DNA of 64,000 nt from Patescibacteria group bacterium. Lineage in GTDB: Bacteria; Patescibacteriota; Minisyncoccia; Phycocordibacterales; Phycocordibacteraceae. The notes below the pieces were generated by a model that did not search any database, was not told the origin of the DNA, and saw nothing but the letters and a program-made list of their open reading frames with translations. The first letter of the stretch is position 1; the number at the start of each line of letters is the position of its first letter. The stretch lies in the NCBI GenBank assembly GCA_038064695.1, contig JBBTSO010000005.1, forward strand, positions 42,070 through 106,069, given 5' to 3'. The position numbers were made by a program, and so were the translations under genes. Shown here one piece after another: positions 9,266 through 47,425 of the stretch.

Positions 9266-10219
9266 ATGAGTAAACAGAGAGTACTCCTTGCCTTTGGGGG
9301 GATTGTACTTATTCTTGTCGTTGGTATGTGGGGGTGGGTCGTATTTGGCCCCGTTCGGTATTCGCTATTTTATTTTTTTACCCTGCTCAATGCGCCTCAA
9401 GAAGTGAAAGATATGCTTTTTGTTGTTGACAGTGACAGCTCATCTTCGCTTGTCCGTATCCGTCTCGGGGGTCTTGAGACTCAAACATTTGAAGGAATTC
9501 ATATTTTAGGAGTTGAGCGCACAAACGACAAAACAGCAGTGCTGGTATTTCAACAAGGGAGTGGCGCTACGAATGTGGCTCGAGTGGAAGGGGATGCTCT
9601 GGTGCCCTTAACTGATGATGGAGAGATGAAAAAAAGTGTCGCTTTTTCTTCTGATGGAGCATATTTTGCCTACACTGTTCCGGTGAGTTTGTCCCTTCAG
9701 GAGAGTGACTCAGATTCAGGGGAAGTGCCGTCAATCTCATACTCTCCCAATGCGTTTAGTGTTCAAGTCTATGAACGTTCCGGTGCCTTTATTGAGTCTT
9801 TTTCAGGGAACCATCCGTTTTTTTTAGACAATGAGACACTCGGATTTTTTTCTGAAGAAGGGATTGAAACGAAGAATCTCGTCAAAGGCGACAAAACGTA
9901 TATTTACGACGACATCGCTTTTTTGGCAGATGAACGTCCGTATTTCGGGCGCAATAACACCATGATCGTCCGCAACCCTGTTTCCAATGAACTGGTCGTC
10001 TTTCAATTTATTTCCACGCCGCCCTTAGTGTATCGAATCGCCGGAGTGCTGCCTGGCTCGTCGAACGGTTTCGCGCTTTCCCGAGACGATGCTGTATACC
10101 ACGGGTTTTCAACTGACGGATCGTTTATAATACAGAAAGTGACTGATTTTGAACAGTCGCCAGAAGTCTTTTTTTCAATCCCGTCCTCGTTTTTTAGTCC
10201 CACCAGTGCGGTGTTTTAG
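9266..10219 (+). CDS. hypothetical membrane-anchored protein with a beta-rich extracytoplasmic domain
   Basis: 317 aa, N-terminal TM. SSDGAYFAY-type segments are reminiscent of TolB/PD40-like repeats, a weak match. Confidence 0.45.
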   Translation: MSKQRVLLAFGGIVLILVVGMWGWVVFGPVRYSLFYFFTLLNAPQEVKDMLFVVDSDSSSSLVRIRLGGLETQTFEGIHILGVERTNDKTAVLVFQQGSGATNVARVEGDALVPLTDDGEMKKSVAFSSDGAYFAYTVPVSLSLQESDSDSGEVPSISYSPNAFSVQVYERSGAFIESFSGNHPFFLDNETLGFFSEEGIETKNLVKGDKTYIYDDIAFLADERPYFGRNNTMIVRNPVSNELVVFQFISTPPLVYRIAGVLPGSSNGFALSRDDAVYHGFSTDGSFIIQKVTDFEQSPEVFFSIPSSFFSPTSAVF

Positions 10220-10241: not shown

Positions 10242-11762
10242 ATGACATTCGTTTCAAAGTACAAGCCCTTTAAAAAAAAGACACTGGTGACGCTCATGGC
10301 CGCACTGTTTTTGTTTCCTTTTTTCGCCCAGGCTGCTACCCCGACAGCGACACTCACCGTAACCCCCTCGACGGTTTTTCCTCCAGCTACGGGGACAAAC
10401 AATACACAAGTGTATGTAACGTGGTCGTCAACAAACGCTACGAGCTGTTCAATCGTTCGTCAAAAGCCTGACCTAACCAAATCAACTCTCCCTACAGGTG
10501 GAGCAAAAAGCGGTTCATACATTGACCGTGCGCTTGAGGTTGGTTTTACTAATTATGAACTCACTTGCTTTGGCGGGGGCACGTCAGTGAAGGTTACAAA
10601 AACGGTAATAGGGCAGTCTCCGTATGCTGGTCCATCTACTGGTTATGGGACGGGAGCTGGACAGTGCGCGAGTGGTGTTTGTCTGTCATCGCCAGGTGTG
10701 CTGTACATTCCATGCAGCATTCTTCTGACCAGCGATAAAACCACCACGCTCGGTTTTACCAATGACTCTGCCGCGATCACGCTTGGTCAGAGTGTGAAAT
10801 TGATTTGGAGTAGTATCATTTTTGCCGGCAACACTGCAAATATTATTAACTACGGACCTATTTCGCCTCCATCAGGCGGTTCGGTAACGGTTACCCCAAC
10901 TCAAACAATCACGTACACTGCTCAGTGTACGTTTGGAGGCGCTGGCATTTACGGTTACTCAGGGGGTACCATTAACTCAAACTCAATCACTATCAACGTC
11001 GCACCGCCTTCGGTGTCCGGAACCTGTAGTGTCTCTCCTGCAGGCATCACCTCAGGCTCTTCGGCTACGTGGACTGCGGTACCAAGCGGAGGCGATGGAA
11101 CCTACACGTATTCTTGGAGTGGTACCAGCGGACTTACTGGTACTGCCCGCACGGTAACGAAATCATATTCAACGACCGGCACAAAAACCGGAACAGTCAT
11201 CATCACCTCTGCGGGCGTTTCAAAAACAGTCCAATGTTCCAACTCACTCATCGTTTCAAGTCCGACACCACAATGCTCAAACGGTATTGATGATGACGGC
11301 GATGGCCGCATTGACTCGGCAGACTATGGATGTACATCCTCCGGTGGAGGTGGAAACATTGCAAACGACCCTACTGAATCACCCAATCCTCAATGTTCGG
11401 ACGGGGTTGATAATAACGGCAATGGGTTGATTGACACTGCTGACGTGGGCGCGTGCACGGATCCTGCTGATAGTAATGAACAACCACTGCCTGGCTCAAC
11501 ACTTTCTCTTTCTGGTTCCGCGCTTGTTCAAAAGTCTTTACCCGCAACACTCATATGGTCGGTTTCTAATGTTCGCGCGGGGTCGTGTACTCTGTTCGGT
11601 ACCAATGGCGACTCCTGGGATCTTACAGGAACGTCGGGCGTTCTTGTATCATCGACTATTTCCGGAGAAACCACCTTCACCCTTCAGTGTCTTGATTTGA
11701 ACGGAAATCCCACAAGTAAAACTCATAACGTTAAAGTTGCACCCTCGTTTGAGGAAGTTTAA
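10242..11762 (+). CDS. secreted repeat protein with Ig-like modules and two Cys-bracketed Asp/Asn-rich (DxDxDG-type) motifs
   Basis: 506 aa with a signal peptide. It contains repeated modules of about 85 aa (W-S-S-x-N ... T-Y-x-L-x-C). It also has two copies of the motif C-S-[DN]-G-[IV]-D-[DN]-x-G-[DN]-G-x-I-D-x-A-D-x-G-(A)-C. Paralogous to the next ORF. Confidence 0.6.
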   Translation: MTFVSKYKPFKKKTLVTLMAALFLFPFFAQAATPTATLTVTPSTVFPPATGTNNTQVYVTWSSTNATSCSIVRQKPDLTKSTLPTGGAKSGSYIDRALEVGFTNYELTCFGGGTSVKVTKTVIGQSPYAGPSTGYGTGAGQCASGVCLSSPGVLYIPCSILLTSDKTTTLGFTNDSAAITLGQSVKLIWSSIIFAGNTANIINYGPISPPSGGSVTVTPTQTITYTAQCTFGGAGIYGYSGGTINSNSITINVAPPSVSGTCSVSPAGITSGSSATWTAVPSGGDGTYTYSWSGTSGLTGTARTVTKSYSTTGTKTGTVIITSAGVSKTVQCSNSLIVSSPTPQCSNGIDDDGDGRIDSADYGCTSSGGGGNIANDPTESPNPQCSDGVDNNGNGLIDTADVGACTDPADSNEQPLPGSTLSLSGSALVQKSLPATLIWSVSNVRAGSCTLFGTNGDSWDLTGTSGVLVSSTISGETTFTLQCLDLNGNPTSKTHNVKVAPSFEEV

Positions 11763-11875
11763 CCGTACTCACATAGGAGTGCATTGTATTTAGTATTATG
11801 GACATCTTAAACACTACCCCCAGTCGTTGATTGGAAGCACTTTTTGTGTTGGGTCAAGTGGTATGATACTGGTAT

Positions 11876-13243
11876 ATGAATATTCTTAATACGATAGGTT
11901 ATTTCATTGTTCAAGTTGTTGCGGGAGCATTAACATTTGTTGGAATACAAACCCCGATAAACCCCACACTCAACGTTACCCTCGGTGCATTACCAACCAC
12001 CATTAATGCGGGGGAGGTAGCAAAATTATCGTGGTCTTCTAATGGCGCGGTAGAGTGTACGAGTATTGATTTTAGTACAGGAAGCCAGGTTGTGGGCAAC
12101 AAAGACGTATCACCAACACAGACCACTACGTACAATATTTTGTGCTTTGATGCAAAATCAACCGCACTTGCAACACCAGGAACGTGGCAGCTAAGTGACA
12201 CTGACTATACCGATTTCGCCTGCCCGGTATCAACCGTGGAGCTTGATTTGGGGAACGGAGTCACTGAACCAATTCCTGAGTGTGCGGGGTCTGTGCCAAA
12301 ACAAAACTGCCCCGTGAACCAAAATGGCGGATGTAACTGGTCCAATTCATTTGAACCTTCGGGAACAGCGTGTTCAGGAACTGGTCAGTGTAAGGTGAGC
12401 TCTTCGAGTCAGAGTTGTGTCGTCAAAACAAAAATATATTCTTGTACACCTACACCAGTGACGACGGGAACGTGGACGCTCGTCGGAAGCGACCTCTCAG
12501 ATATCTTCATATTTCCTGGGGGAGATCCAAGCAAGAATCAAATTTACCGTGGAATGCAAGACTGCCCGGTACCAGACCCTGAAGGCAAGTCATGTACCAG
12601 TGCAAATCGATGCAAAACGAACAAAACGGTTGGATGGTTGGTTTACACCGACATTTATGCGTGCCAGGGAGGCGGAACAGCACCAAAACCCCAAAACCTT
12701 AATGCGGTGAGTTCACAAGTAACGGTGACAGTGAATCAAGCAGTTACTCCACCCGGGGGTGGAGGTGGGGGAAGCGGACAATGTTCTGACAAAAAAGATA
12801 ATGATAACGACGGAAAAGTTGATAGTGCCGATTTTGGTTGTTCAATAGGAACAGGGAACGAGAGCCCAAATCCGCAGTGTTCAGACGGCATTGATAATAA
12901 TAACAACGGGCTCATTGATCTTAAAGACACAGGAGCCTGCACAAGTTCTACTGATAATAATGAGCGGTTTCCTGACGGTGCAGCAACACTTTCGGCAGAT
13001 ACACTCGTGTTAAAAAATACTTCCGCCCGCATTTCGTGGAGTATCAGTAACGTTGTTGCCGGTTCGTGTGTCTTGAAAGGAACAAACGGTGACACATGGA
13101 CTCTCACTGGTAATTCAGGGACGGTGACTTCGTCTCCGCTCGCAAATGAAACTCAATTTACTTTAACCTGTACTGACCTCAACGCACGTTCAATTAAACA
13201 GTCGGTGACCGTAAAAATTGCTCCAACGTTCGACGAGCAGTAA
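11876..13243 (+). CDS. secreted repeat protein, paralog of 10242-11762
   Basis: 455 aa with the same domain order. The C-terminal 90 aa and the SPNPQCSDG[IV]DNNxNGLID motif are conserved with the upstream ORF. Nucleotide identity is only moderate, indicating an old duplication. Confidence 0.6.
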   Translation: MNILNTIGYFIVQVVAGALTFVGIQTPINPTLNVTLGALPTTINAGEVAKLSWSSNGAVECTSIDFSTGSQVVGNKDVSPTQTTTYNILCFDAKSTALATPGTWQLSDTDYTDFACPVSTVELDLGNGVTEPIPECAGSVPKQNCPVNQNGGCNWSNSFEPSGTACSGTGQCKVSSSSQSCVVKTKIYSCTPTPVTTGTWTLVGSDLSDIFIFPGGDPSKNQIYRGMQDCPVPDPEGKSCTSANRCKTNKTVGWLVYTDIYACQGGGTAPKPQNLNAVSSQVTVTVNQAVTPPGGGGGGSGQCSDKKDNDNDGKVDSADFGCSIGTGNESPNPQCSDGIDNNNNGLIDLKDTGACTSSTDNNERFPDGAATLSADTLVLKNTSARISWSISNVVAGSCVLKGTNGDTWTLTGNSGTVTSSPLANETQFTLTCTDLNARSIKQSVTVKIAPTFDEQ

Positions 13244-13248
13244 AAATA

Positions 13249-13279
13249 AAAAACATCTGCTTCGGCAGATGTTTTTTTG
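13249..13279. terminator. bidirectional rho-independent terminator
   Basis: aaaaacatctgc-ttcg-gcagatgttttttt: a perfect 9-10 bp stem with an A run before and a T run after. Confidence 0.7.
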
Positions 13280-13301: not shown

Positions 13302-13493
13302 GTGTCCTGTTGGAGACAACAAGCACGCATCGGTCAAGCGCTCGTTCGTCGCCGGTCGCTCCTCACTCCGCCTGACCACGCTCGCGTCGTCCCGATAGCT
13401 TTCGGGTCCCGCGACGCTCGTCTTCGATTTTCCGTAGAGCCTCGGTGAAATACTAAAAAACTACATACGAATGTATGTAGTTTTAAGTATTCA

Positions 13494-13565
13494 TGACTCC
13501 ACGGAGAATCGAACTCCGATTTGAACCTTGAGAAGGTCCCGTCCTAGCCGTTAGACGATGGAGCC
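13494..13565 (-). tRNA. tRNA-Glu (anticodon CUC)
   Basis: The reverse complement folds as a canonical cloverleaf: 7-bp acceptor stem, D arm GTCT/GGAC, anticodon stem GGACC/GGTTC with loop TTCTCAA, T arm CGGAG-TTCGATT-CTCCG and discriminator A. CCA is not encoded. Confidence 0.8.
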
Positions 13566-13803
13566 AAAATCTAGGCCTATATAGGCGCTAGGCTTTTAGT
13601 ATAAACCAGAAAAGCATAAGAAATATACTACGAATTGGCAAAATAATAAAACAAACGCAACAGTGCCGTGGAACTTTGTTTGGCCGTTCCCTGACTTAGG
13701 TGGGGAGATTAACGACGGAGGCTTGAAGGGGTACCCAGACAAATTTTGTAGAATTTTCCACGTGCTACAGTGGTGAGGTGTGAGTTTATATATAACATAG
13801 TGC

Positions 13804-15633
13804 ATGCACTTTTCTATGAAACAACTTGCCCTTTTTGTGTTATTGGTTCTTGCTGCAGCAAGCATCCCCATAACCTTTATCGAACCTGAATTCAGAGTTG
13901 AAGCGCTCGCTTCATTTAAGAATGATTTTCGCACTCTCGTGGCGTCGCTTTCTTCAGTAGCGCCATCGGGACAGGTAGCGGGCGTCACTTCTCTCGATGT
14001 TTCAGGGGAGAGTTTTTTTAAACGAAGCGATGTACTGCTTTCTCCCCGTGGTGTGGAGAGCGGATGGAAGGCTGTCTACGATTCTTTTTTAGCAAATCGT
14101 ATTGCGTGGACGTACGCATGGAATACTTACGTTCCGCTTGGACAAAAACTTAACATTCCCGTGCAGTGTACGTTTACCTATTGGATTCCGGCAAGTGAGC
14201 CACTCGCGCCACAAATGGAGTGCCCAGGAGCAAAAGGCAAAACAGTTGGCCTTTTGCCCGACGTGCGTACTAAAGCGTGGCAAACGTTCCAGTTGGCAAA
14301 TGTAAAAAAACAAATTGACGCCGGCTGCACCGCGTTTCAACAGGACGGTATGGGAGCTTCGGAAGGCCTATCTTATGGGTGCGGGACGAAGGAAGAAATA
14401 GTCAGTTACAACACATGGCTCCATGATGAGACGCAAAAGTACGCGTGGAGTATTGATCCCTCGCGTCGTATCACATTCTCAACAAATATTACGAACAATC
14501 AATTCAAAAAGAATGACTTCGCATGGATTTTAGACAGTTTTGATTTTTTAGTAAACGAAACGTACGGTGACAGAGCAACTACGCTTTCCTCATTACGTTC
14601 AAGCGCCGCGGAAACTCGGTACTATGACCCCGCGGTGAGTGCGAGCACACTAGCAAGCGAAGACGTATGGCTTAACCAGCGGTTTATTGCATCTGCCTAC
14701 GCGCTAGGGATTCTCCCAATTGCTCCATGGAGTGTCTATACTGGTCCGACAATGCCACGGTTTTATGGGAATGCGACAGACTTTGCAAAGCTTTATAGTG
14801 TTGTCCGAAATAATCAAACCCTTTTTGATTCTTATACATTTCTTCGAGACTCGGACAACACTTCTGGAGTGATTGCCCCCCTTCAACCACTTCACTACTC
14901 AGTGACTCCTGGAGCCGACGGGGGAGTAAAGAGTGTTGATACCGTCACGTATCCTGATCGAGTCACTATAAAGTGGACCGGTCAATCCTCGTATAAAAAA
15001 GTGGTGAAAGGGCAAAAACTACGAATTGGTAGCACGGTATTTACCACCACTGGAGGAAGTAATGTAGGGAACATTTATCTTCCTGTTGGCTCTCAGGTTG
15101 CAGTAAACCAACCGGTATTTATGAAGGATCTCTCAATTCCACCCTCTCCTGTTCTTGTTTCTCAGGGGTTGGTAACCAAAGTGGACGCTACGACGTACCC
15201 GCAGCGTGTAGCGGTAACGTGGACCGGTCGTACGGACGCGGAAAATAAAAATGTCCCCAAGGGAACGACTGTAACCATTGCAGAAAAAAACTATTCAACG
15301 GTCGTTGACACCACGGTGGGTAACATCTATGTGCCAGCAGGTACTCCTGTTGCAGTAGGCGATACCTTCTCAATCTCTAAAACAAAACTTCATGTTGTGG
15401 TAACCACCTCTCAGGTTGATAAAGCAAAACGCGCGGTGCACCTAGTGAATTGGGACGACACAACGGTACGCCCGGGTCTTTCACTTTCAAAGTATGACTT
15501 TCCGAAACCACCAAATAAAATCGTTACCTCAGAGGCATCGGTCGCAACAGCGATTACTCCGGAGCTTCGAGGTAACTATTACGTCTACACACTTCCTCCG
15601 CTTGATACCTGGCTAATTTTATTCGCTGAGTGA
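13804..15633 (+). CDS. secreted hypothetical protein with a C-terminal internal tandem duplication
   Basis: 609 aa with a signal peptide. Two repeats of about 80 aa (TYP[DQ]RV..[KT]WTG...VGNIY[LV]P.G[ST].VAV) occupy the C-terminal third. Confidence 0.55.
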   Translation: MHFSMKQLALFVLLVLAAASIPITFIEPEFRVEALASFKNDFRTLVASLSSVAPSGQVAGVTSLDVSGESFFKRSDVLLSPRGVESGWKAVYDSFLANRIAWTYAWNTYVPLGQKLNIPVQCTFTYWIPASEPLAPQMECPGAKGKTVGLLPDVRTKAWQTFQLANVKKQIDAGCTAFQQDGMGASEGLSYGCGTKEEIVSYNTWLHDETQKYAWSIDPSRRITFSTNITNNQFKKNDFAWILDSFDFLVNETYGDRATTLSSLRSSAAETRYYDPAVSASTLASEDVWLNQRFIASAYALGILPIAPWSVYTGPTMPRFYGNATDFAKLYSVVRNNQTLFDSYTFLRDSDNTSGVIAPLQPLHYSVTPGADGGVKSVDTVTYPDRVTIKWTGQSSYKKVVKGQKLRIGSTVFTTTGGSNVGNIYLPVGSQVAVNQPVFMKDLSIPPSPVLVSQGLVTKVDATTYPQRVAVTWTGRTDAENKNVPKGTTVTIAEKNYSTVVDTTVGNIYVPAGTPVAVGDTFSISKTKLHVVVTTSQVDKAKRAVHLVNWDDTTVRPGLSLSKYDFPKPPNKIVTSEASVATAITPELRGNYYVYTLPPLDTWLILFAE

Positions 15634-16319: not shown

Positions 16320-16709
16320 TTACTTTGGGATTTTTGTCAATTTTTGATTATACTGTAAGGCAAATTCCATATCATTCTTTATTGCCAGCTTCAAATCTTC
16401 AAGATTGGCAAATGCTTCCTTTTCTCGTATTTTTTTAAATACTAAAACCCGCACTGGTTCCCCGTATATGTCTTTCGTAAACCCAAAAAGGTGCGCTTCA
16501 AGAATTCCACGTTCCGGGTCAGCGTAGAGTCCTGCGTTATAGGTAGCGCCACAGTACTCCACCACTCCCACAAAACTACCGGAGAAGTGGTGTTCTCCAA
16601 GAGGAATGTTTACGGTGGGGTACCCCAACGTTCGCGCGAACTGCCCACCTAGGGAGACAATGCCTGAAACAGTAAAGAGTGGAATGTTAGGTGAATGATT
16701 CATCAACAA
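16320..16709 (-). CDS. riboflavin kinase (flavokinase domain only)
   Basis: 129 aa with flavokinase motifs: LGYPTVNI (PTANI-like) and LEAHLFGFTKDIYGE (E.H..F..D.YG). Confidence 0.65.
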   Translation of the reverse strand: MLMNHSPNIPLFTVSGIVSLGGQFARTLGYPTVNIPLGEHHFSGSFVGVVEYCGATYNAGLYADPERGILEAHLFGFTKDIYGEPVRVLVFKKIREKEAFANLEDLKLAIKNDMEFALQYNQKLTKIPK

Positions 16710-17139
16710 CCGCCTTTACGTCGCCACCGTCTGCCTTGCCTGCAAGGTCTTTCATTACCATTCCCACCAAACGGCCCGCGTCTTTTTTATCACTAACATT
16801 TAGTTCAGCTTTTTTTGCGTCTACTATTTTTTTAATATCGTCTCTCCTCATCAGAGCAGGAAGGTATGCTTCTAGGAGCGCCTGTTCGGCTTCTTCTTTT
16901 TGCGCGGACTCTTCTCGGCCACCGGAGCGGAAGGCAAGAACTGATTCTTTACGCTTTTTTACCTCGCGTCGTATGACCGCGAGCGCGTCTTCGTCAGAAA
17001 GCTCGTCGGTAGGTTTTTTGCCTTTGGCGACAAGTTCATTGGTGAACGCCGCCGTGAGCCCACGGAGCACTTCGGTTTTAAGTGGGTCCTTCGCCTTCAT
17101 GGCGGTCATAATTCCATCTTTTATGCTTTTTTGTATCAT
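16687..17139 (-). CDS. GatB/YqeY domain protein
   Basis: The start is taken at MIQKSIKDG inside the longer track ORF. The YqeY signature (KAKD..K...LR.L.A.F.NE) is present. Confidence 0.75.
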   Translation of the reverse strand: MIQKSIKDGIMTAMKAKDPLKTEVLRGLTAAFTNELVAKGKKPTDELSDEDALAVIRREVKKRKESVLAFRSGGREESAQKEEAEQALLEAYLPALMRRDDIKKIVDAKKAELNVSDKKDAGRLVGMVMKDLAGKADGGDVKAVVDESFT

Positions 17140-17182
17140 TCCAACAGTATAACGCGTTACGTCGGAATGGTAGAATAGAGAT

Positions 17183-18223
17183 ATGAACGAATTTTTCTCG
17201 GTGGCGTTAGCGTTTTTGGTACTCATAAACCTCGCAGTTCTTTTTTTTGTTTTTACTCGTAAACAATCAGGTGGGTCAGAGGGTGTGCAGATGTTGAACG
17301 ATCGCATTGTGGAGCTGTCGCGGACTTTGGACGAACGCCTTGACCGCACTCAGCAGTCTTTACACGAGTCAGTGAAGACACAAATGTCGGAGTCGTTTCG
17401 ACTCATTAAAGACGTCACCGCAGGGCTCACCAAGTTGGATGAAACGAACCGCCAAGTGGTGTCGTTTGCCGACCAGCTTCAAAACTTGCAAGATATTTTA
17501 AAAAATCCAAAACAGCGAGGTATTTTAGGCGAATACTACCTCGAAACGGTTTTGAAAAACGTAATGCCGCCAGGGAGTTTCCAAATGCAGTACGGGTTTA
17601 AAAACGGTGAAATAGTGGACGCAGTCGTTTTTATGCGTGACCGTATTATTCCCATAGATTCAAAGTTTTCATTAGACAACTACAACAAGGCCATTGAGGC
17701 GCGTGAGGGAAGTGAGCGCGAAGGATACGAGAAAATGTTTAAACAAGACTTGAAAGTGCGCATTGACGAAACCAGCAAATACGTGCGACCTGAAGAAAAC
17801 ACGATGGAATTTGCGTTTATGTTTATCCCCTCAGAGGGTGTGTATTATGACCTGCTGGTGAACCAGGTGGGAGCAATGAAAACCAACACGCGGGATTTGA
17901 TTGAATATGCGTTTAGTAAAAAAGTGATCATTGTTTCGCCGACCTCATTTTTGGCGTATTTGCAAACGGTCTTGCAAGGACTCAAAGGACTTCAAATTGA
18001 AGAGCAGGCAAAAGAAATTCAAAAGAGGGTAGGGGAGTTAGGAAAACATATCAAGGCGTATGAGGATTATTTTGCAAAAATAGGCAATACGCTCCAGACT
18101 ACGGTAAACCACTACAACGCGGCCCACAAAGAGCTTGGTAAGGTAGACAAAGACGTGCTCCGCATTACCGGGGAAGCCCCAGGCATTGAAGTGGTGAGTC
18201 TCCAGGGGGTTGATAGGGAATAG
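17183..18223 (+). CDS. rmuC: DNA recombination protein RmuC
   Basis: 346 aa with an N-terminal TM, a coiled coil and the RmuC core (GEYYLETVL ... IPIDSKF). Confidence 0.8.
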   Translation: MNEFFSVALAFLVLINLAVLFFVFTRKQSGGSEGVQMLNDRIVELSRTLDERLDRTQQSLHESVKTQMSESFRLIKDVTAGLTKLDETNRQVVSFADQLQNLQDILKNPKQRGILGEYYLETVLKNVMPPGSFQMQYGFKNGEIVDAVVFMRDRIIPIDSKFSLDNYNKAIEAREGSEREGYEKMFKQDLKVRIDETSKYVRPEENTMEFAFMFIPSEGVYYDLLVNQVGAMKTNTRDLIEYAFSKKVIIVSPTSFLAYLQTVLQGLKGLQIEEQAKEIQKRVGELGKHIKAYEDYFAKIGNTLQTTVNHYNAAHKELGKVDKDVLRITGEAPGIEVVSLQGVDRE

Positions 18224-44518: not shown

Positions 44519-45386
44519 CTATTGCATGAATACGATGCGGCTCGACATATACTAGTATAGTATGTTTTCCGAAGTTTGATTTTGTGAGAAGTGACAAAAA
44601 AGTTTCTGGTTCTCTGTAAATTACTTTCCATCCAGCAAATCGTGACAGAAGTGGCTTCTCAGCATGTGCAATTATATTTCCAGTTATATAGACTCCTCCG
44701 GCATTTAATACATCGTAAATTTTGTTAAAAATTTCTACCGCTCGATCATCGTTGAAATAGTCCAATAATCCAACCATCTCAACAATATCAAACATATTGG
44801 TCCCTTTAGAGTTTGTTAAATACGTCCCGAGTGTTGCGTCGGTCCATTCAACTGGACATTCAATTTCAAATTCTTTGACCAAGATTTTACTATATTCGAG
44901 CGCAGTGCGATCCTTATCAAGAAAAACAAGTGAAAGATTTTTATTCTTCGCGTTGCCCGTTTCAACTACAGCTTCAATGACTGCCCGCGAAGAACCAGCC
45001 GCGATACTTAAAAGTCGTGCATTTTTGTTACGTTTCAAAGCGTCAGTAAGTGATTTTCTTAATTCACGCTTAACTAAACGAAGTCTGTTGCGGACTGCAA
45101 GTACATTAGCAGTTTCAAACCAGATAGAATAAAAAAATCTCTCAAAGGCATTACGTGAAGGATATTTCTCTCCGTGAGTGTATGCGACCTCAAGGGCTCG
45201 ATACGTCATTGCGTCTTTAATAAAAATATGAGCTGCACGGTGTGTTTTTTGAATTGGCCACCGCAACCACGCGGGAATACTATTTAAAAATGGTACAAGA
45301 ATCACATTTGCCGCTTTCCGTTTTTCTGAATGGTATTCATGCCCCACTGCAGGATCAGTGTCAGAAATTACTGTATGTTCTATCAT
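44493..45386 (-). CDS. Rossmann-fold methyltransferase-like protein
   Basis: 297 aa with a motif I-like segment (LLSIAAGSSRAVIE) and an acidic residue after beta2 (FLDKD). Family uncertain. Its start overlaps the FadE-like stop and its end overlaps the HK start. Confidence 0.45.
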   Translation of the reverse strand: MIEHTVISDTDPAVGHEYHSEKRKAANVILVPFLNSIPAWLRWPIQKTHRAAHIFIKDAMTYRALEVAYTHGEKYPSRNAFERFFYSIWFETANVLAVRNRLRLVKRELRKSLTDALKRNKNARLLSIAAGSSRAVIEAVVETGNAKNKNLSLVFLDKDRTALEYSKILVKEFEIECPVEWTDATLGTYLTNSKGTNMFDIVEMVGLLDYFNDDRAVEIFNKIYDVLNAGGVYITGNIIAHAEKPLLSRFAGWKVIYREPETFLSLLTKSNFGKHTILVYVEPHRIHAIGVAERGNA

Positions 45387-47425
45387 AAGGATTCAAACAG
45401 CGTAGCATCAAAATCGTCAACATCAAGGATTTTTCTTAAGTGTTTTAATTCTATTTGTTCCCCTCTCGTAACAATTTCCAATCCAGATTCTAGACAGCCG
45501 GTTTTGTCGTTTGAATCTCTATTGATATAAATTCCATTGGTTAACATATCACGAGTTATGTTTGTACTCATTAGCAATTTTGAAACTCTTTTATCATCAT
45601 CGATAGAAGGGAGTTTATAACGTTTGCCTCGTGGAAATACAACAGCGCGTGATATCCACTTCAAAAACGGGTTACCAAGATGGTGAATAATATCATCCAT
45701 ATATTGTTCAATGCGGTATGTGCTACGCTTAAAAATCCATTGGGTAAGAATGACATTATCTTCTTTAGTGTCATCATAAAAACGAAGCACTACACTCATA
45801 AAAAACATTTCACTAAGTACGTCAGCAAAATTGCCGGAAAGGCGTTCACGTTTTTTTAATGTTCCACCATACGAAATTAATGCCATCTCCACAAGCCAAG
45901 CGTAACGCGCGCTCATCAACGCAATAATTTTTTTATAAGCTGGTGATTTTATCTTTTGGGGAAAAAACGATTGCGCGCATGATCTGAAACCACTGACTAA
46001 CACATGAATAATATGGAGTAACACAACGCGGTCAAATTTTTTGAATTCACCAGTTCTGATTGATTCATATTCTGAAAGTAAAAATTTGTGACATCGCATC
46101 AGCCCGTGTCCAAAGGTAATGAAACATCGCGTGAGAATGTTAGCACCTTCAACGGTAATGATAATAGGTATCATCTGATAAATGGGAAATAAAATGTTGC
46201 GCGGACCTTCAAAGACGCCTCTTCCACCCAAAATATCCATACCATCGTTCACTACTTGTCGTGCCCGTTCTGTTGTTTGATATTTCATGAGGGCAGAAAT
46301 AACAGCTGGTACGGGTCCTGCATCCATCACTGCCATCGTTGTGCGACGTGCACACTCTAATATATGGGCTTCCGCCGCAATTGATGCTAATTTCATTTGT
46401 ACCCCTTCAAAATTGCCAATAGGATGTTTGAATTGTTCTCGAAGTTTTGCGTACGCACCAACATTGCGGGCAACGTATTGGACAGCACCAGTAGCAAGTG
46501 AGGGAATTGAAAGTGCGCGTCCTGTGTATAGCTGTTGTACAAACATTTTCCAACCTTTCCCCACCATTTCTTCACCGCCAATAACCATGCTCATTGGAAT
46601 GAATATGTCAGTACCAGACGTAGGTCCATTCATAAAATTTTGACGGGCAGGCCAGTGTCGTCTCCCAATTACTACCCCAGGGTGGTTTGTTGGAATTAAC
46701 GCGCAGGTCATTCCGATCTCCTCCCCGTCCTTAAAAGTTCTGAAGGCAAGCCCAAGCACAGTGGCAACCGGTGCAAGAGTGATATAACGTTTTTCCCATG
46801 TGACTCGGATGCCTAAGATTTTTTTACCTTTAAATTCTCCATACTCAACATGTCCGATGTCCGGTATATTCGCTAAGTCGCATCCCGCAAAAGGGCTAGT
46901 CATAGCGAAACACGGTATCTCATCACCTGTAGCAAGTCGTGGAAGATAATAGTCGCGTTGTTCTGACGTTCCGTAACTGGTAAGCAATCCCGCAGGTCCT
47001 AGTGAGTTTGGTATGAGAACCGTTGATGCAACTGTAGGTACGCGAGAAATAAGTTTTTTAATAATTGAAGAAAAAGCATTGTGTGAAAATCCTAAACCTC
47101 CGTGTTCTTTTGCAATCAAAATTCCAAAAAATTTGTTTTCTTTTAAAAAGTTCCACACTGATTGTGGCATGTCCTTTGTTCCCACTGTTATTTCCCACTC
47201 ATCGACCGTATTGCAAAGCTCTTCAACAGGCCCGTTAAGGAAATCTTGTTCCGCGTCCGTTAAAGGATTAATAGGTAATGACTCAAGAATTGAAAAATTT
47301 GGATTACCTGAAAAAAGTTCCTTGTCAAACCACACCTCACCTGTTTGAATAACGTCTTGTTCAGTGTCAGACATCGAAGGGATGGTTTTTTTTGCAAAAT
47401 GATGCAACGGTGAGAAGAGACTCAT
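45383..47425 (-). CDS. fadE: FadE-type long acyl-CoA dehydrogenase (lacking the N-terminal membrane anchor)
   Basis: 680 aa, collinear with enterobacterial FadE from about residue 60 onward. Shared blocks include VWFDKELFSGNP, FLNGPVEE, NSLGPAGLL, KRYITLAPVATVLGLAF, ITVEGANILTR and GGTLKKRERLSGNFADVLSE. The C-terminal VDDFD block of the FadE-specific C-terminal domain is also present. Confidence 0.8.
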   Translation of the reverse strand: MSLFSPLHHFAKKTIPSMSDTEQDVIQTGEVWFDKELFSGNPNFSILESLPINPLTDAEQDFLNGPVEELCNTVDEWEITVGTKDMPQSVWNFLKENKFFGILIAKEHGGLGFSHNAFSSIIKKLISRVPTVASTVLIPNSLGPAGLLTSYGTSEQRDYYLPRLATGDEIPCFAMTSPFAGCDLANIPDIGHVEYGEFKGKKILGIRVTWEKRYITLAPVATVLGLAFRTFKDGEEIGMTCALIPTNHPGVVIGRRHWPARQNFMNGPTSGTDIFIPMSMVIGGEEMVGKGWKMFVQQLYTGRALSIPSLATGAVQYVARNVGAYAKLREQFKHPIGNFEGVQMKLASIAAEAHILECARRTTMAVMDAGPVPAVISALMKYQTTERARQVVNDGMDILGGRGVFEGPRNILFPIYQMIPIIITVEGANILTRCFITFGHGLMRCHKFLLSEYESIRTGEFKKFDRVVLLHIIHVLVSGFRSCAQSFFPQKIKSPAYKKIIALMSARYAWLVEMALISYGGTLKKRERLSGNFADVLSEMFFMSVVLRFYDDTKEDNVILTQWIFKRSTYRIEQYMDDIIHHLGNPFLKWISRAVVFPRGKRYKLPSIDDDKRVSKLLMSTNITRDMLTNGIYINRDSNDKTGCLESGLEIVTRGEQIELKHLRKILDVDDFDATLFESL

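Follow-up and report, generated by a model that had tools for sequence, protein, structure and literature searches.

Two anciently duplicated Patescibacteria proteins share a C-terminal cassette of probable Ca2+ loops and an Ig-like module

Genes A and B, adjoining each other in a Patescibacteria MAG, encode proteins with acidic, Cys-bracketed loops, and the locus raises the question of what these loops bind and what purpose the conserved C-terminal region around them serves. Based on analysis of the whole stretch of DNA (64 kb, the window) and comparisons to homologs and available structures, we propose, at a probability of roughly 45%, that A and B are exported to the cell surface as modular, disulfide-bonded proteins, stabilised by Ca2+ and docked by a constant cassette. 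The source organism is an uncultured, ultra-small bacterium of the Patescibacteria; the first-pass annotation, made from the letters alone, had considered an episymbiotic or small-genome organism. The locus contains the following elements.

9266..10219, + strand: partner gene, 317 aa, with an N-terminal TM helix and no Cys; 100% identical to a hypothetical protein listed at NCBI under 'Patescibacteria group bacterium'
10242..11762, + strand: gene A, 506 aa, 14 Cys; stop codon within the coordinates
11876..13243, + strand: gene B, 455 aa, 20 Cys; stop codon within the coordinates
13248..13277, unstranded: hairpin with a perfect 13-bp stem, flanked by an A-tract and a T-tract (consensus scan only)
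13493..13566, - strand: tRNA-Glu(CTC), a conserved syntenic neighbour

The coordinates and lengths of both ORFs match those of the first-pass annotation, the motif strings that it quoted are correct, and the acidic motif occurs exactly twice in each protein. The shared domain order that it had seen holds loosely: it applies to the C-terminal cassette, whereas the middle parts are unlike, with a second WSS-type and a PKD-type module in A and two Cys-rich modules in B. Likewise, the C-terminal module of 90 aa is indeed conserved, but the paralogy extends further, BLASTP aligning the C-terminal 162 aa, and these only, at 54% identity (A344-505 with B302-454, E=1e-50); the N-terminal Ig-like modules of A and B are related at the profile level only. 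We judge the duplication to be very old, as had been supposed, because the two cassettes share 53% nucleotide identity, give no BLASTN match to each other and agree at 34% of third-codon positions at identical residues. In another genome, A-type and B-type genes occur as separate orthologs, which also points to an old duplication.

The four acidic loops are located as follows.

11274..11333, + strand: A loop 1, residues 345-364, CSNGIDDDGDGRIDSADYGC; matched by NF033662 and aligned Cys to Cys with teneurin-4 C838-C857
11394..11456, + strand: A loop 2, residues 385-405, CSDGVDNNGNGLIDTADVGAC; an Asn-rich variant whose D-N-N-G-N-G form is conserved across the family
12782..12841, + strand: B loop 1, residues 303-322, CSDKKDNDNDGKVDSADFGC; matched by NF033662 and aligned to teneurin-4
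12878..12940, + strand: B loop 2, residues 335-355, CSDGIDNNNNGLIDLKDTGAC; matched by NF033662 and aligned to teneurin-4

Each loop is 20-21 residues long and bracketed by one Cys pair, and the consensus, D-x-[DN]-x-[DN]-G-x-[IV]-D-x-x-D, is that of the canonical EF-hand type of Ca2+ loop, which spans 12 residues. The two copies are differentiated, D-N-D-G-D-G being followed by D-N-N-G-N-G, with three Asp to Asn exchanges that reduce the charge of loop 2. By profile search, the loops belong to the acidic disulfide repeat NF033662 (acid_disulf_rpt, 'acidic double-disulfide repeat-containing protein'), which is widespread in prokaryotes and has the same ~20-residue unit, C-x-[DN]-G-x-D-N-D-x-D-G-x-x-D-x-x-D-x-x-C. 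The NCBIfam model matches two stretches in each protein, at 48 bits in A, above the cutoff of 41, and at 37.2 bits in B, below it (E=1.8e-9); it also matches orthologs and giant repeat proteins. Since A and B have two units each, their scores lie near the cutoff, with B just under, whereas the giant multi-repeat proteins found by the cassette profile reach 414 bits; moreover, the differentiated units of A and B form part of a fixed C-terminal cassette, joined to an Ig-like module and a tail. Repeats of the NF033662 type occur in tandem in giant proteins of many phyla. A literature search found no paper describing this repeat.

Among solved structures, the repeat profile matches a single family, the teneurin C-rich domain. 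The cassette profile has its best PDB match in teneurin-4 (7PLP, E=0.0014), and a single-loop profile of 91 units matches teneurin C-rich domains only, with 7PLP at E=3.1e-6 and Ten2, Ten3, Ten4 and Ten-m at E=0.003-0.024; by these matches, the loop repeat and the N-terminal half of this Ca2+-binding domain are homologs. The crystal structure of the domain (human teneurin-4 834-871; Meijer et al. 2022, PMC9058538), which is extracellular and part of an adhesion protein, contains three Ca2+, two of them in sites resembling thrombospondin T3. The bracketing Cys of the loops correspond to the C838-C857 disulfide, and, of the nine positions whose side chains are listed as Ca2+ ligands in teneurin-4 (PMC9058538), seven, namely D840, D843, N844, D845, D847, D851 and D854 in teneurin numbering, are D or N in all four loops of the window. 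The teneurin domain has three disulfides from six Cys, a C-terminal half of conotoxin type and three Ca2+ sites. The loops, in contrast, have two Cys each, four fewer than teneurin, with no C-terminal half and no equivalents of the ligands E835 and D856. Teneurin has one copy, A and B have two in tandem and other prokaryotic proteins up to about 30. Structure prediction of the acidic repeat, a check set in advance, returned the loops at low confidence (AF2, pLDDT 52-72). Overall, we consider it likely that the loops bind Ca2+.

The likeness to thrombospondin type 3 and MopE repeats noted at first pass thus named the right motif class, as NF033662 and the teneurin Ca2+ domain indicate, but not the families themselves. 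In a Pfam search of A and B, the MopE, TSP_3, EF-hand and dockerin models remained unmatched and nothing significant was found. The T3 repeats (TSP-1, 1UX6) similarly have Asp-rich D-x-D-x-D-G loops that are disulfide-stapled, irregular and folded by Ca2+, and in the homologous domain of teneurin, Ca sites I and II were described as matching T3 coordination (PMC9058538). With either profile no T3 PDB chain appears at E<=1, nor does Pfam TSP_3 match at E<=1; the resemblance of the A and B loops to T3 hence runs through teneurin and by pattern.

Around the loops, the proteins consist of the following modules.

10335..10616, + strand: A residues 32-125, WSS-type Ig-like module 1 (Cys69, Cys109); hhalign, BLAST
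10719..10991, + strand: A residues 160-250, second WSS-type module (W189, Cys229); hhalign
10992..11261, + strand: A residues 251-340, PKD-type Ig-like module (Cys262, Cys332); Pfam, homolog comparison
11478..11738, + strand: A residues 413-499, predicted C-terminal Ig-like beta-sandwich (Cys449, Cys483); AF2, Foldseek
11739..11759, + strand: A residues 500-506, conserved tail APSFEEV-COOH; alignment A1
11954..12166, + strand: B residues 27-97, WSS-type Ig-like module (Cys61, Cys90); BLAST copies in many homologs, hhalign 96.9% to the C-terminal Ig-like module
12167..12451, + strand: B residues 98-192, Cys-rich 'GTWxL' module, copy 1; iterative HMM search, alignment A4
12455..12670, + strand: B residues 194-265, Cys-rich module, copy 2; iterative HMM search, alignment A4
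12959..13240, + strand: B residues 362-455, C-terminal Ig-like module (Cys398, Cys432) and tail APTFDEQ-COOH; 54% identical to the A cassette

The Ig-like modules proposed at first pass are well supported. An AF2 model computed from alignment A1, in which B is one row, has 8-9 strands with pLDDT >90 at residues 79-165, and Foldseek against the PDB retrieves V-type Ig domains (E ~1e-4), the PKD-like domain of ColG (4aqo) and an alpha-2-macroglobulin MG domain, so that we are confident in predicting an Ig-like sandwich for the C-terminal module. The signature W-S-x-x-N…T-[YF]-x-L-x-C is found at W61, W189 and W439 in A and at W52 and W388 in B, and profile comparison indicates that the N-terminal WSS-type modules are homologous to the C-terminal one (hhalign probability 96.9%, E=1.7e-10). 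BLAST detects copies of the first WSS-type module of A in many homologs; the second reaches 96.9% (E=1.6e-10) against the WSS modules and 70.6% against the C-terminal Ig. The PKD-type module matches Pfam PKD_4 weakly (E=0.29) and is 50-70% identical to homolog modules with precomputed PF18911 matches. The Cys-rich module was found in 20 instances by iterative HMM search, all inside the A/B protein family; its copy 1 in B was modelled at pLDDT 67.5 and had no Foldseek match in the PDB. The Cys-rich modules of B have no known fold. Copy 1 has eight Cys, six conserved and two in an insertion, and copy 2 has four; we infer a C1-C5 disulfide because the conserved Cys 1 and Cys 5 are absent together from copy 2, a paired loss that the homolog P0022 shows as well.

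The leaders, for which a signal peptide in each protein had been claimed, differ.

10242..10334, + strand: A residues 1-31, Sec-type signal peptide MTFVSKYKPFKKKTLVTLMAALFLFPFFAQA, followed by A; sequence inspection only
11876..11953, + strand: B residues 1-26, uncharged hydrophobic leader MNILNTIGYFIVQVVAGALTFVGIQT; sequence inspection

By inspection, the A leader is canonical: its n-region holds five Lys, its hydrophobic core reaches a Kyte-Doolittle maximum of 2.37 over 15 residues, and an AQA|A site is present. Most homologs, e.g. P0012 and L86_651, likewise have canonical cleavable signal peptides. The B leader has the hydrophobic core but neither K/R nor an AxA site, and is thus atypical; it may act as either a signal peptide or a signal anchor. 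P0022 and a 492-aa ortholog at locus L001 have conserved this leader, and the stop-to-stop ORF of B begins just 9 nt upstream of the B start. The signal peptide of A, the even Cys counts (14 and 20), which pair up within modules, and the Thr-, Ser- and Gly-rich composition together suggest an extracellular place for A and B, whose export is very probable.

Comparison to relatives, which carry one to three cassette genes each, so that copy number varies, a check proposed at first pass, adds a new element. In about 21 Patescibacteria homologs, as judged from their sequences, the cassette (~165 aa; loop 1, loop 2, Ig-like module and a tail P-[ST]-F-x-E-x-COOH, given across homolog cassettes as PSFxE(I/V)) ends the protein behind shuffled N-terminal modules of WSS-type Ig-like, PKD-type and Cys-rich kinds. 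Its end is the exact C-terminus in 20 of the 21 full-cassette homologs, the exception being P0014 with 16 extra residues, and in the tail P167 and E171 are invariant and F169 nearly so (alignment A1). The cassette is the most conserved part of these proteins. At L001, the cassettes of two paralogs are 95.8% identical compared to 59.5% for the whole proteins, a pattern of concerted evolution.

The first-pass annotation had placed A and B in a surface-protein island next to a tRNA, a view that does not hold in that form. The 609-aa gene forms a unit of its own, unrelated and present in the source genome only, and the tRNA-Glu, considered as an integration mark and rejected, marks the downstream edge of the variable locus in inverted orientation relative to relatives. 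The 317-aa gene, in contrast, is a conserved partner. It ends 22 nt before the start of A, and at 9 of 11 loci its homologs (~310 aa) immediately precede cassette genes, forming 11 partner-cassette pairs in five unrelated genomic contexts; at L085, L086 and L090 the two genes overlap by 4-8 nt. At L087 and L005 cassette genes have no adjoining partner, and B and several other cassette genes have none of their own. The hairpin, beginning 5 nt past the B stop codon, resembles a bidirectional terminator and would close a 317-A-B unit. Searched against the PDB, the partner-family profile finds WD40-type blades and TolB (TolB at E about 1e-3), and the ectodomain is probably a beta-propeller; one blade-like motif is recognisable, Pfam PD40 gives E=0.06 only, and the E-value for 2ymu is a sum of repeated weak matches. 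The partner shares with TolB and PD40 (WD40-like) propellers the blade motif and a place outside the cytoplasm, here behind its N-terminal TM helix, but has no Tol-Pal context.

We regard as established the sequence family and its homology to a Ca2+-binding domain of solved structure, as well as the Ig-like fold, the protein architecture and the pairing of the genes, and propose the following mechanism. The loops most likely fold around Ca2+ held by Asp/Asn side chains and backbone carbonyls, and the disulfide would clamp each into a rigid element that is stable outside the cell only. The cassette would serve as a common docking module that keeps variable, outward-facing binding modules on the producer's own surface, perhaps via the membrane-anchored ~310-aa partner. 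We infer the docking role, which is tentative and stands somewhat below even odds, because a constant C-terminal cassette follows a shuffled front and the partner gene is nearly always directly upstream. It is doubtful that the 317-aa family is the receptor; with just 54% identity, the A and B cassettes resemble each other loosely for ligands of a single receptor. Dockerins offer a functional analogy only, docking by the cassette being proposed. Their Ca2+ loops of EF-hand type, D-x-[DN]-x-D-G-x-[IV]-[DN]-x-x-D, also come as a tandem pair, ~35-40 residues apart, and lie C-terminally on proteins with varied N-terminal modules, docking this repertoire onto a cell-bound partner (the cellulosome cohesin). 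However, their loops are helix-flanked and free of disulfides, the partner proposed here is a beta-propeller-like membrane protein and not a cohesin, and Pfam Dockerin_1 has no match in A or B at E<=1.

Alternatively, the loops may be Ca2+-rigidified spacers like the T3 'wire' repeats, with the proteins released or otherwise held, no docking, and the adjacency of the 317-aa gene a matter of co-regulation. The two loci without partner agree with this, as does the generic building-block look of a repeat that giant proteins of many phyla carry in 10-27 tandem copies. We nevertheless consider such a role rather unlikely, as it leaves unexplained that two differentiated loops, one Ig-like module and an invariant tail are kept as a C-terminal unit, that the cassette is homogenised between paralogs of one genome, and that the pairing recurs across unrelated contexts with overlapping stop and start codons.

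The orientation might also be reversed, the cassette being a Ca2+-dependent ligand-binding tip, e.g. for host-surface glycans, on a stalk of N-terminal modules with the N-terminus in or near the membrane. A B leader without signal-peptidase site or positive charges, conserved in three orthologs, fits a retained anchor and a distal C-terminus; if it is such an anchor, C-terminal docking would be unnecessary for B. In addition, binding sites are often the most conserved part, and the homologous teneurin domain takes part in protein-protein packing (PMC9058538). Against these points, which leave a binding tip unlikely, A and most homologs would have free N-termini after signal peptide cleavage, the specificity parts of surface proteins are usually variable whereas the cassette is constant, and its extreme C-terminal position and pairing with a membrane protein suit anchoring better.

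Binding of copper or another transition metal, with a role in metal acquisition, is suggested by the name of Pfam PF11617 (Cu-binding_MopE, 'putative metal-binding motif') and its weak match at A 345-358 (E=0.41), yet is highly improbable. The 11.4 bits are far under the gathering cutoff of 27, His, Met and free Cys are all absent from the loops, and the conserved candidate ligands are all Asp/Asn oxygens, a set that does not support a copper function. The MopE-type motif has a Cys where the A and B loops have Gly (D-N-D-C-D-G compared to D-N-D-G-D-G). Its related pattern, C-D-G-x-D-N-D-C-D-G-x-x-D-E, was earlier compared to the teneurin C-rich core (PMC3278476), and the sole solved homolog binds Ca2+ (PMC9058538). 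Finally, despite the biased Asp/Asn/Gly-rich composition and the silence of Pfam, a low-complexity artefact in ORFs that are no real genes is refuted by Cys that are invariant and in register, cassette-profile E-values down to 1e-80, 66 homologs of gene A (the named ones all Patescibacteria), conserved synteny and a six-frame scan of the whole window, in which the loop profile (E=3e-25 and 4e-20) and the cassette profile (E=6e-81 and 5e-77) match ORFs A and B only, far beyond chance.

In conclusion, we favour surface proteins docked by their C-terminal cassette, whose N-terminal modules may, tentatively, mediate adhesion to a host or other surface. A and B represent a new family assembled from known parts, which is notable chiefly for a cassette gene that usually adjoins the gene of a membrane-anchored partner.

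Profile searches and comparison of related loci show that the protein family of A and B (the 506-aa and 455-aa products of the genes listed below), as judged from sequence, combines Ig-like modules with a known acidic disulfide repeat homologous to a structurally solved Ca2+-binding domain. They also show that the C-terminal cassette of about 165 aa (loop 1, loop 2, an Ig-like module and a short tail) is constant, and that its gene is genetically coupled to a gene for a predicted membrane protein. The relevant features of the window are:

10242-11762, + strand: gene A, 506 aa
11876-13243, + strand: gene B, 455 aa
A residues 345-364, + strand: A loop 1, CSNGIDDDGDGRIDSADYGC
A residues 385-405, + strand: A loop 2, CSDGVDNNGNGLIDTADVGAC
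B residues 303-322, + strand: B loop 1, CSDKKDNDNDGKVDSADFGC
B residues 335-355, + strand: B loop 2, CSDGIDNNNNGLIDLKDTGAC
12167-12670, + strand (B residues 98-265): two copies of a Cys-rich 'GTWxL' module, 70-95 aa each, with six conserved cysteines

Both open reading frames, with their acidic Cys motifs and Ig-like signatures, are present at the coordinates and lengths reported in the first-pass annotation. Each protein carries exactly two Cys-bracketed acidic motifs, four in the window, whose bracketing cysteines (C11, C30, C51 and C71 in the cassette alignment) are invariant, and A has three copies of the W-S-x-x-N…T-[YF]-x-L-x-C signature, B two. The number of cysteines is even in both (14 in A, 20 in B), with pairing module by module. 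In six-frame scans of the 64-kb window, A and B were the sole matches to the loop profile (E=3e-25 and 4e-20) and to the cassette profile (E=6e-81 and 5e-77), and hence neither motif nor cassette is due to chance. Homologs of A number 66, all named ones being from Patescibacteria (Kaiserbacteria, Paceibacterota). Pfam searches with A, B and both flanking proteins returned nothing over threshold, PKD_4, MopE and EF-hand being weak matches only, and no significant PDB match was obtained with the sequence of A.

The paralogy of A and B claimed previously is real and old, although its extent had been given imprecisely, as BLASTP aligns the two proteins over their C-terminal 162 residues only (54% identity, E=1e-50). 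Across this segment nucleotide identity is 53%, BLASTN finds no match and only 34% of third-codon positions at identical residues agree, which argues for an ancient duplication. It is also older than speciation, since the related genome of locus L001 encodes separate orthologs of both types, one of A (510 aa, 60% identity) and one of B (492 aa), the latter with the unusual N-terminus of B. Signal peptides had been assigned to both proteins. For A this probably holds, since by inspection its N-terminus resembles a canonical Sec leader with a positively charged n-region, a hydrophobic h-region and small residues at -3/-1, whereas B offers an h-region only: its leader (residues 1-26, 11876-11953) has a hydrophobic core without Lys or Arg and without an AxA cleavage site. 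The open frame 5' of the B start extends for 9 nt only, making a longer N-terminus impossible, and the same leader is kept in the ortholog P0022 and in the 492-aa L001 protein, i.e. it is shared by three orthologs. The B leader is, to judge from its composition, not a textbook signal peptide.

The full cassette is found in 21 of the 66 homologs of A and ends exactly at the C-terminus in 20 of these 21. It runs from loop 1 through E-S-P-N-P-Q, loop 2, D-x-N-E and the Ig module to the tail P-S-F-x-E-[IV], where loop 1 is always of the D-N-D-G-D-G type and loop 2 always of the Asn-rich D-N-N-G-N-G type. In front of it, WSS (W-S-x-x-N signature), PKD, CARDB and Cys-rich modules occur in shuffled combinations. 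A scan of GTDB genomes yielded a match extending beyond the loops in one Paceibacterota locus only, and the cassette hence appears to be specific to the Patescibacteria lineage. Two L001 paralogs, P0007 (5771-6976) and P0003 (8001-9533), are 59.5% identical overall and 95.8% identical over the cassette, their last 165 aa; this difference points to concerted evolution of the cassette inside a single genome, probably through gene conversion or a recent partial duplication.

An AlphaFold2 (AF2) model of A residues 335-506, built from a 20-sequence alignment, places the C-terminal module (model residues 79-165) in a sandwich of 8-9 strands with pLDDT >90. Foldseek returned 39 PDB matches to this module at E<=1e-3; among the matches listed, most are nanobody or antibody V domains (E about 1e-4), along with a few other beta-sandwich domains. 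The PKD-like domain of collagenase G (4aqo) comes next at E=1.1e-3, and an α2-macroglobulin MG domain is matched as well. The module is accordingly modelled as an Ig-like beta-sandwich. The WSS-type modules near the N-termini of A and B are homologous to it (hhalign, probability 96.9%, E=1.7e-10), and the second module of A joins the WSS-type set, likewise with a probability of 96.9%. Model confidence, Foldseek matches and hhalign together support the Ig-like fold suggested in the first-pass annotation. Residues 251-340 of A match Pfam PKD_4 (PF18911) weakly (11.6 bits, E=0.29, gathering cutoff 27 bits) and are 50-70% identical to modules of homologs with precomputed PF18911 annotation; we regard this segment as a probable PKD-type module. 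The Cys-rich 'GTWxL' module of B is seen inside the A/B protein family only. AF2 models the single module weakly (pLDDT 67.5), Foldseek finds no PDB match for this model, and the N-terminal 295 aa of B gave only three matches in a word-indexed protein database, too few for a deep alignment. Joint loss of Cys 1 and Cys 5 in the second B copy and in its P0022 ortholog suggests a C1-C5 disulfide.

The acidic loops fall into a family that is already catalogued. The NCBIfam model NF033662 (acid_disulf_rpt; curated cutoff 41 bits) matches two stretches in each protein, above the cutoff in A (48.0 bits, E=7.3e-13) and below it in B (37.2 bits, E=1.8e-9), the low score of B being due to the presence of just two repeat units; P0022, an ortholog, reaches 39.5 bits and the homolog P0012 46.3 bits. 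A literature search under the name 'acidic double-disulfide repeat' found no paper. Against 1.84 billion representative proteins the cassette profile reached 12,913 clusters at E<=1e-3, the best matches being giant proteins of 10-27 tandem units that align across the loop region only and match NF033662 with up to 414 bits; Pfam finds nothing in them. Three giant proteins from this search with many acidic units (P0067, P0070 and P0072, 1733-2171 aa) end in a common RWRE[LFW]W[DN]WNW-COOH, which looks like a different conserved C-terminal signal. In the GTDB scan, the loop unit is present in Patescibacteria, DPANN archaea, Methanosarcinales and Thermoplasmatota as well as in Myxococcota, Bdellovibrionota, Planctomycetota, Gammaproteobacteria, Actinomycetota, Gemmatimonadota and others. 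This breadth, together with the existing NF033662 model, marks the loop as a widespread, presumably extracellular building block.

The thrombospondin type 3 and MopE-like repeats invoked previously name the right class of motif, as the link to teneurins described below indicates, but Pfam membership fails for both. Cu-binding_MopE (PF11617) reaches 11.4 bits (gathering cutoff 27, E=0.41) at A residues 345-358 and has no match in B; TSP_3 has none in A or B at E<=1. Thrombospondin or COMP chains are likewise absent from the PDB matches of the single-loop profile at E<=1 and from the 60 PDB matches listed for the cassette profile at E<=10. All four loops fit the canonical 12-residue EF-hand pattern D-x-[DN]-x-[DNS]-G-x-[ILV]-[DSTN]-x-x-[DE] (e.g. 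D-D-D-G-D-G-R-I-D-S-A-D), and EF-loop pairs of calmodulin align weakly to the cassette profile (PDB, E=0.004-0.03). However, Pfam EF-hand_6 remains below threshold (E=0.6), and in the DSSP assignment of the AF2 model helical structure around the loops is limited to turns of 3 residues, without the helix-loop-helix flanks of an EF-hand, whose helices are replaced here by disulfides. Dockerin_1 has no Pfam match at E<=1 in A or B, and type I dockerins are analogous in layout only. The loops are thus best filed under NF033662, with the C-rich core of teneurins as their closest solved relative.

The relationship to teneurins was detected with the cassette profile (7PLP, E=0.0014) and with a single-loop profile of 91 diverse repeat units, which matched only teneurin C-rich domains in the PDB (7plp_A at E=3.1e-6; teneurin-2, -3, -4 and Drosophila Ten-m at E=0.003-0.024). 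We note that the prokaryotic acidic repeat has no Pfam model and that the teneurin core is the only PDB family matched. In 7PLP the C-rich domain binds three Ca2+ via E835, D840, D843, N844, D845, D847, D851, D854, D856 and three backbone carbonyls, and is cross-linked by the disulfides C838-C857, C852-C863 and C858-C869; Ca sites I and II fit thrombospondin T3 repeats and site III fits LDL-receptor A modules (PMC9058538, Meijer et al.). A parallel between the core and the MopE 'metal-binding motif', as well as sequences of algae and bacteria, had been drawn earlier (PMC3278476, Tucker et al.). In the alignment with teneurin, the C838-C857 bracket is retained in each of the four window loops, and seven of the nine ligand positions are occupied by D or N in all of them; the equivalents of E835 are T, N, S and N, and that of D856 is G. 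In contrast to the six-Cys, three-disulfide pattern of teneurin (1-3, 2-5, 4-6), the loops possess only Cys 1 and Cys 3, with S, T or L in place of C852 and the segment of C858, C863 and C869 absent. Conservation at seven of nine positions is enough to expect Ca2+ binding, not three sites. The loops are modelled at low confidence (pLDDT 52-72), as expected for ion-dependent loops free of secondary structure that are predicted without ions. That they are mere spacers is a less likely reading.

Upstream of the cassette gene lies a recurrent partner. In the window this is a 317-aa protein (9266-10219, + strand, directly upstream of A), which matches an NCBI 'hypothetical protein [Patescibacteria group bacterium]' at 100% identity. 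Genes for proteins of about 290-321 aa directly precede a cassette gene in 11 pairs, covering 9 of 11 loci and five genomic contexts, and overlap with it by 4-8 nt in several loci; the exceptions, without a partner beside the cassette gene, are L087 and L005.

Partner and cassette proteins encoded by adjacent genes in the window and in related loci (length of partner + length of cassette protein, aa)
Window: 317 + A
L001: 317 + 401; 316 + 510
L004: 313 + 532
L002: 290 + 457
L085: 312 + 568
L086: 321 + 491; 313 + 651
L088: 307 + 416
L089: 309 + 834
L090: 301 + 770

The upstream proteins are homologous to one another, with one N-terminal TM helix and no Cys, and in profile searches the family aligns with the PD40/WD40 blade motif and with TolB, Pfam PD40 itself not being significant. 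The building blocks of A and B are, by their profile matches, already known; the pairing of cassette and partner is apparently an undescribed and testable feature.

The first-pass annotation had further described a surface-protein island that included a 609-aa protein next to a tRNA, and this does not stand, as the 609-aa gene is unrelated and the tRNA is a conserved neighbour. The features concerned are:

13248-13277: hairpin with a perfect 13-bp stem and A6/T6 tracts, 5 nt 3' of the B stop codon
13493-13566, - strand: tRNA-Glu(CTC)
13804-15633, + strand: 609-aa gene, beyond tRNA-Glu

Core genes surround the locus, with FtsI and MurF upstream and YqeY, RmuC, RecR, DnaB, MurG, FtsW, aminoacyl-tRNA synthetases and DnaK elsewhere in the window. 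In syntenic relatives FtsI and MurF form one flank and tRNA-Glu(CTC), YqeY and RmuC the other. The stretch enclosed by these conserved flanks holds a varying number of cassette genes, from one to three (L087 one, window and L004 two each, L001 three), which answers the question of copy number raised earlier and points to a variable surface-protein locus amid conserved genes. A tRNA-linked mobile island was rejected on the basis of flat GC content and of the conservation of tRNA-Glu at the same place in relatives; the tRNA is hence better seen as a conserved neighbour than as an integration mark. In L001 (11091-11164), L004 (9717-9789) and L087 (6337-6408) it lies behind the final cassette gene and shares its strand, whereas its orientation in the window is opposite. 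None of the related loci compared contains a homolog of the 609-aa gene, Pfam and NCBIfam give no match to it, and an internal duplication suspected in it was not confirmed by self-BLAST. The gene was rejected as part of the system, having neither homologs nor family and forming a separate transcription unit past terminator and tRNA. The inverted tRNA and the window-only gene suggest a local rearrangement or insertion. The hairpin resembles a bidirectional intrinsic terminator that would also serve the convergent tRNA gene.

Other genes near these loci were recorded. In L001 (12396-14999) and L004 (12487-15129), YqeY and RmuC are separated by a P-type cation ATPase (867-880 aa), which is absent from that position in the window (about 16687-18223) and in L087. 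A type IV pilin-like gene (N_methyl domain; L004 10324-10863, - strand) is located some 700 nt downstream of a cassette gene, and a type IV pilus cluster was sought nearby in the window and rejected, since ten large genes (29990-61817) are housekeeping genes according to Pfam. At 45383-47425 (- strand) the window encodes a 680-aa bacterial-type acyl-CoA dehydrogenase, matched by ACDH_C, Acyl-CoA_dh_1, _N and _M. This is unexpected, as Patescibacteria are, to our knowledge, generally described as lacking fatty-acid metabolism.

From these data we infer the function of A and B as follows. Both proteins would be exported, A via its canonical Sec leader, and then oxidised; the loops would bind Ca2+ and turn rigid only outside the cell. 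The cassette would then dock the variable modules to the surface of the producer, most simply through the 317-aa partner, leaving these modules to point outward, where a role in attachment is possible. The docking logic is analogous to that of dockerin and cohesin, of which the cassette family is not a member. In its most specific form, to which we assign a probability of roughly one in five, the 317-aa and cassette families may constitute an undescribed, Patescibacteria-specific display system, in which a membrane beta-propeller captures domain-shuffled adhesins via Ca2+-dependent cassette recognition. Such a system would fill the role of cohesin-dockerin in bacteria whose adhesins of this kind carry no sortase-type C-terminal signals. 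Alternatively, the constant C-terminal cassette could form the distal ligand-binding tip, which we consider unlikely, the cassette gene being typically preceded by that of the membrane-anchored partner. Copper as the bound metal is highly improbable, and Ca2+ far more likely, because His, Met and free Cys are missing from the ligand set, which consists of oxygen alone, and Ca2+ is the ion bound by the homolog. Overall, the earlier interpretation was largely right in kind, but imprecise on family membership, the extent of paralogy, the B leader and the 'island'.

The Ca2+ core of the teneurin C-rich domain belongs to a very large prokaryotic repeat family of about 12,900 clusters in many bacterial and archaeal phyla, which bears on the debated diatom or bacterial origin of this domain (PMC3278476). 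In Patescibacteria/CPR, little is known of surface presentation and host attachment beyond type IV pili. Here, a fixed, probably Ca2+-dependent cassette is combined with shuffled N-terminal modules and usually encoded after a membrane-anchored partner. If the cassette docks, cassette searches would reveal the surface repertoire, and the protein-protein interaction would be testable. The proposed display system, if true, would bear directly on the way in which episymbionts keep hold of their hosts.
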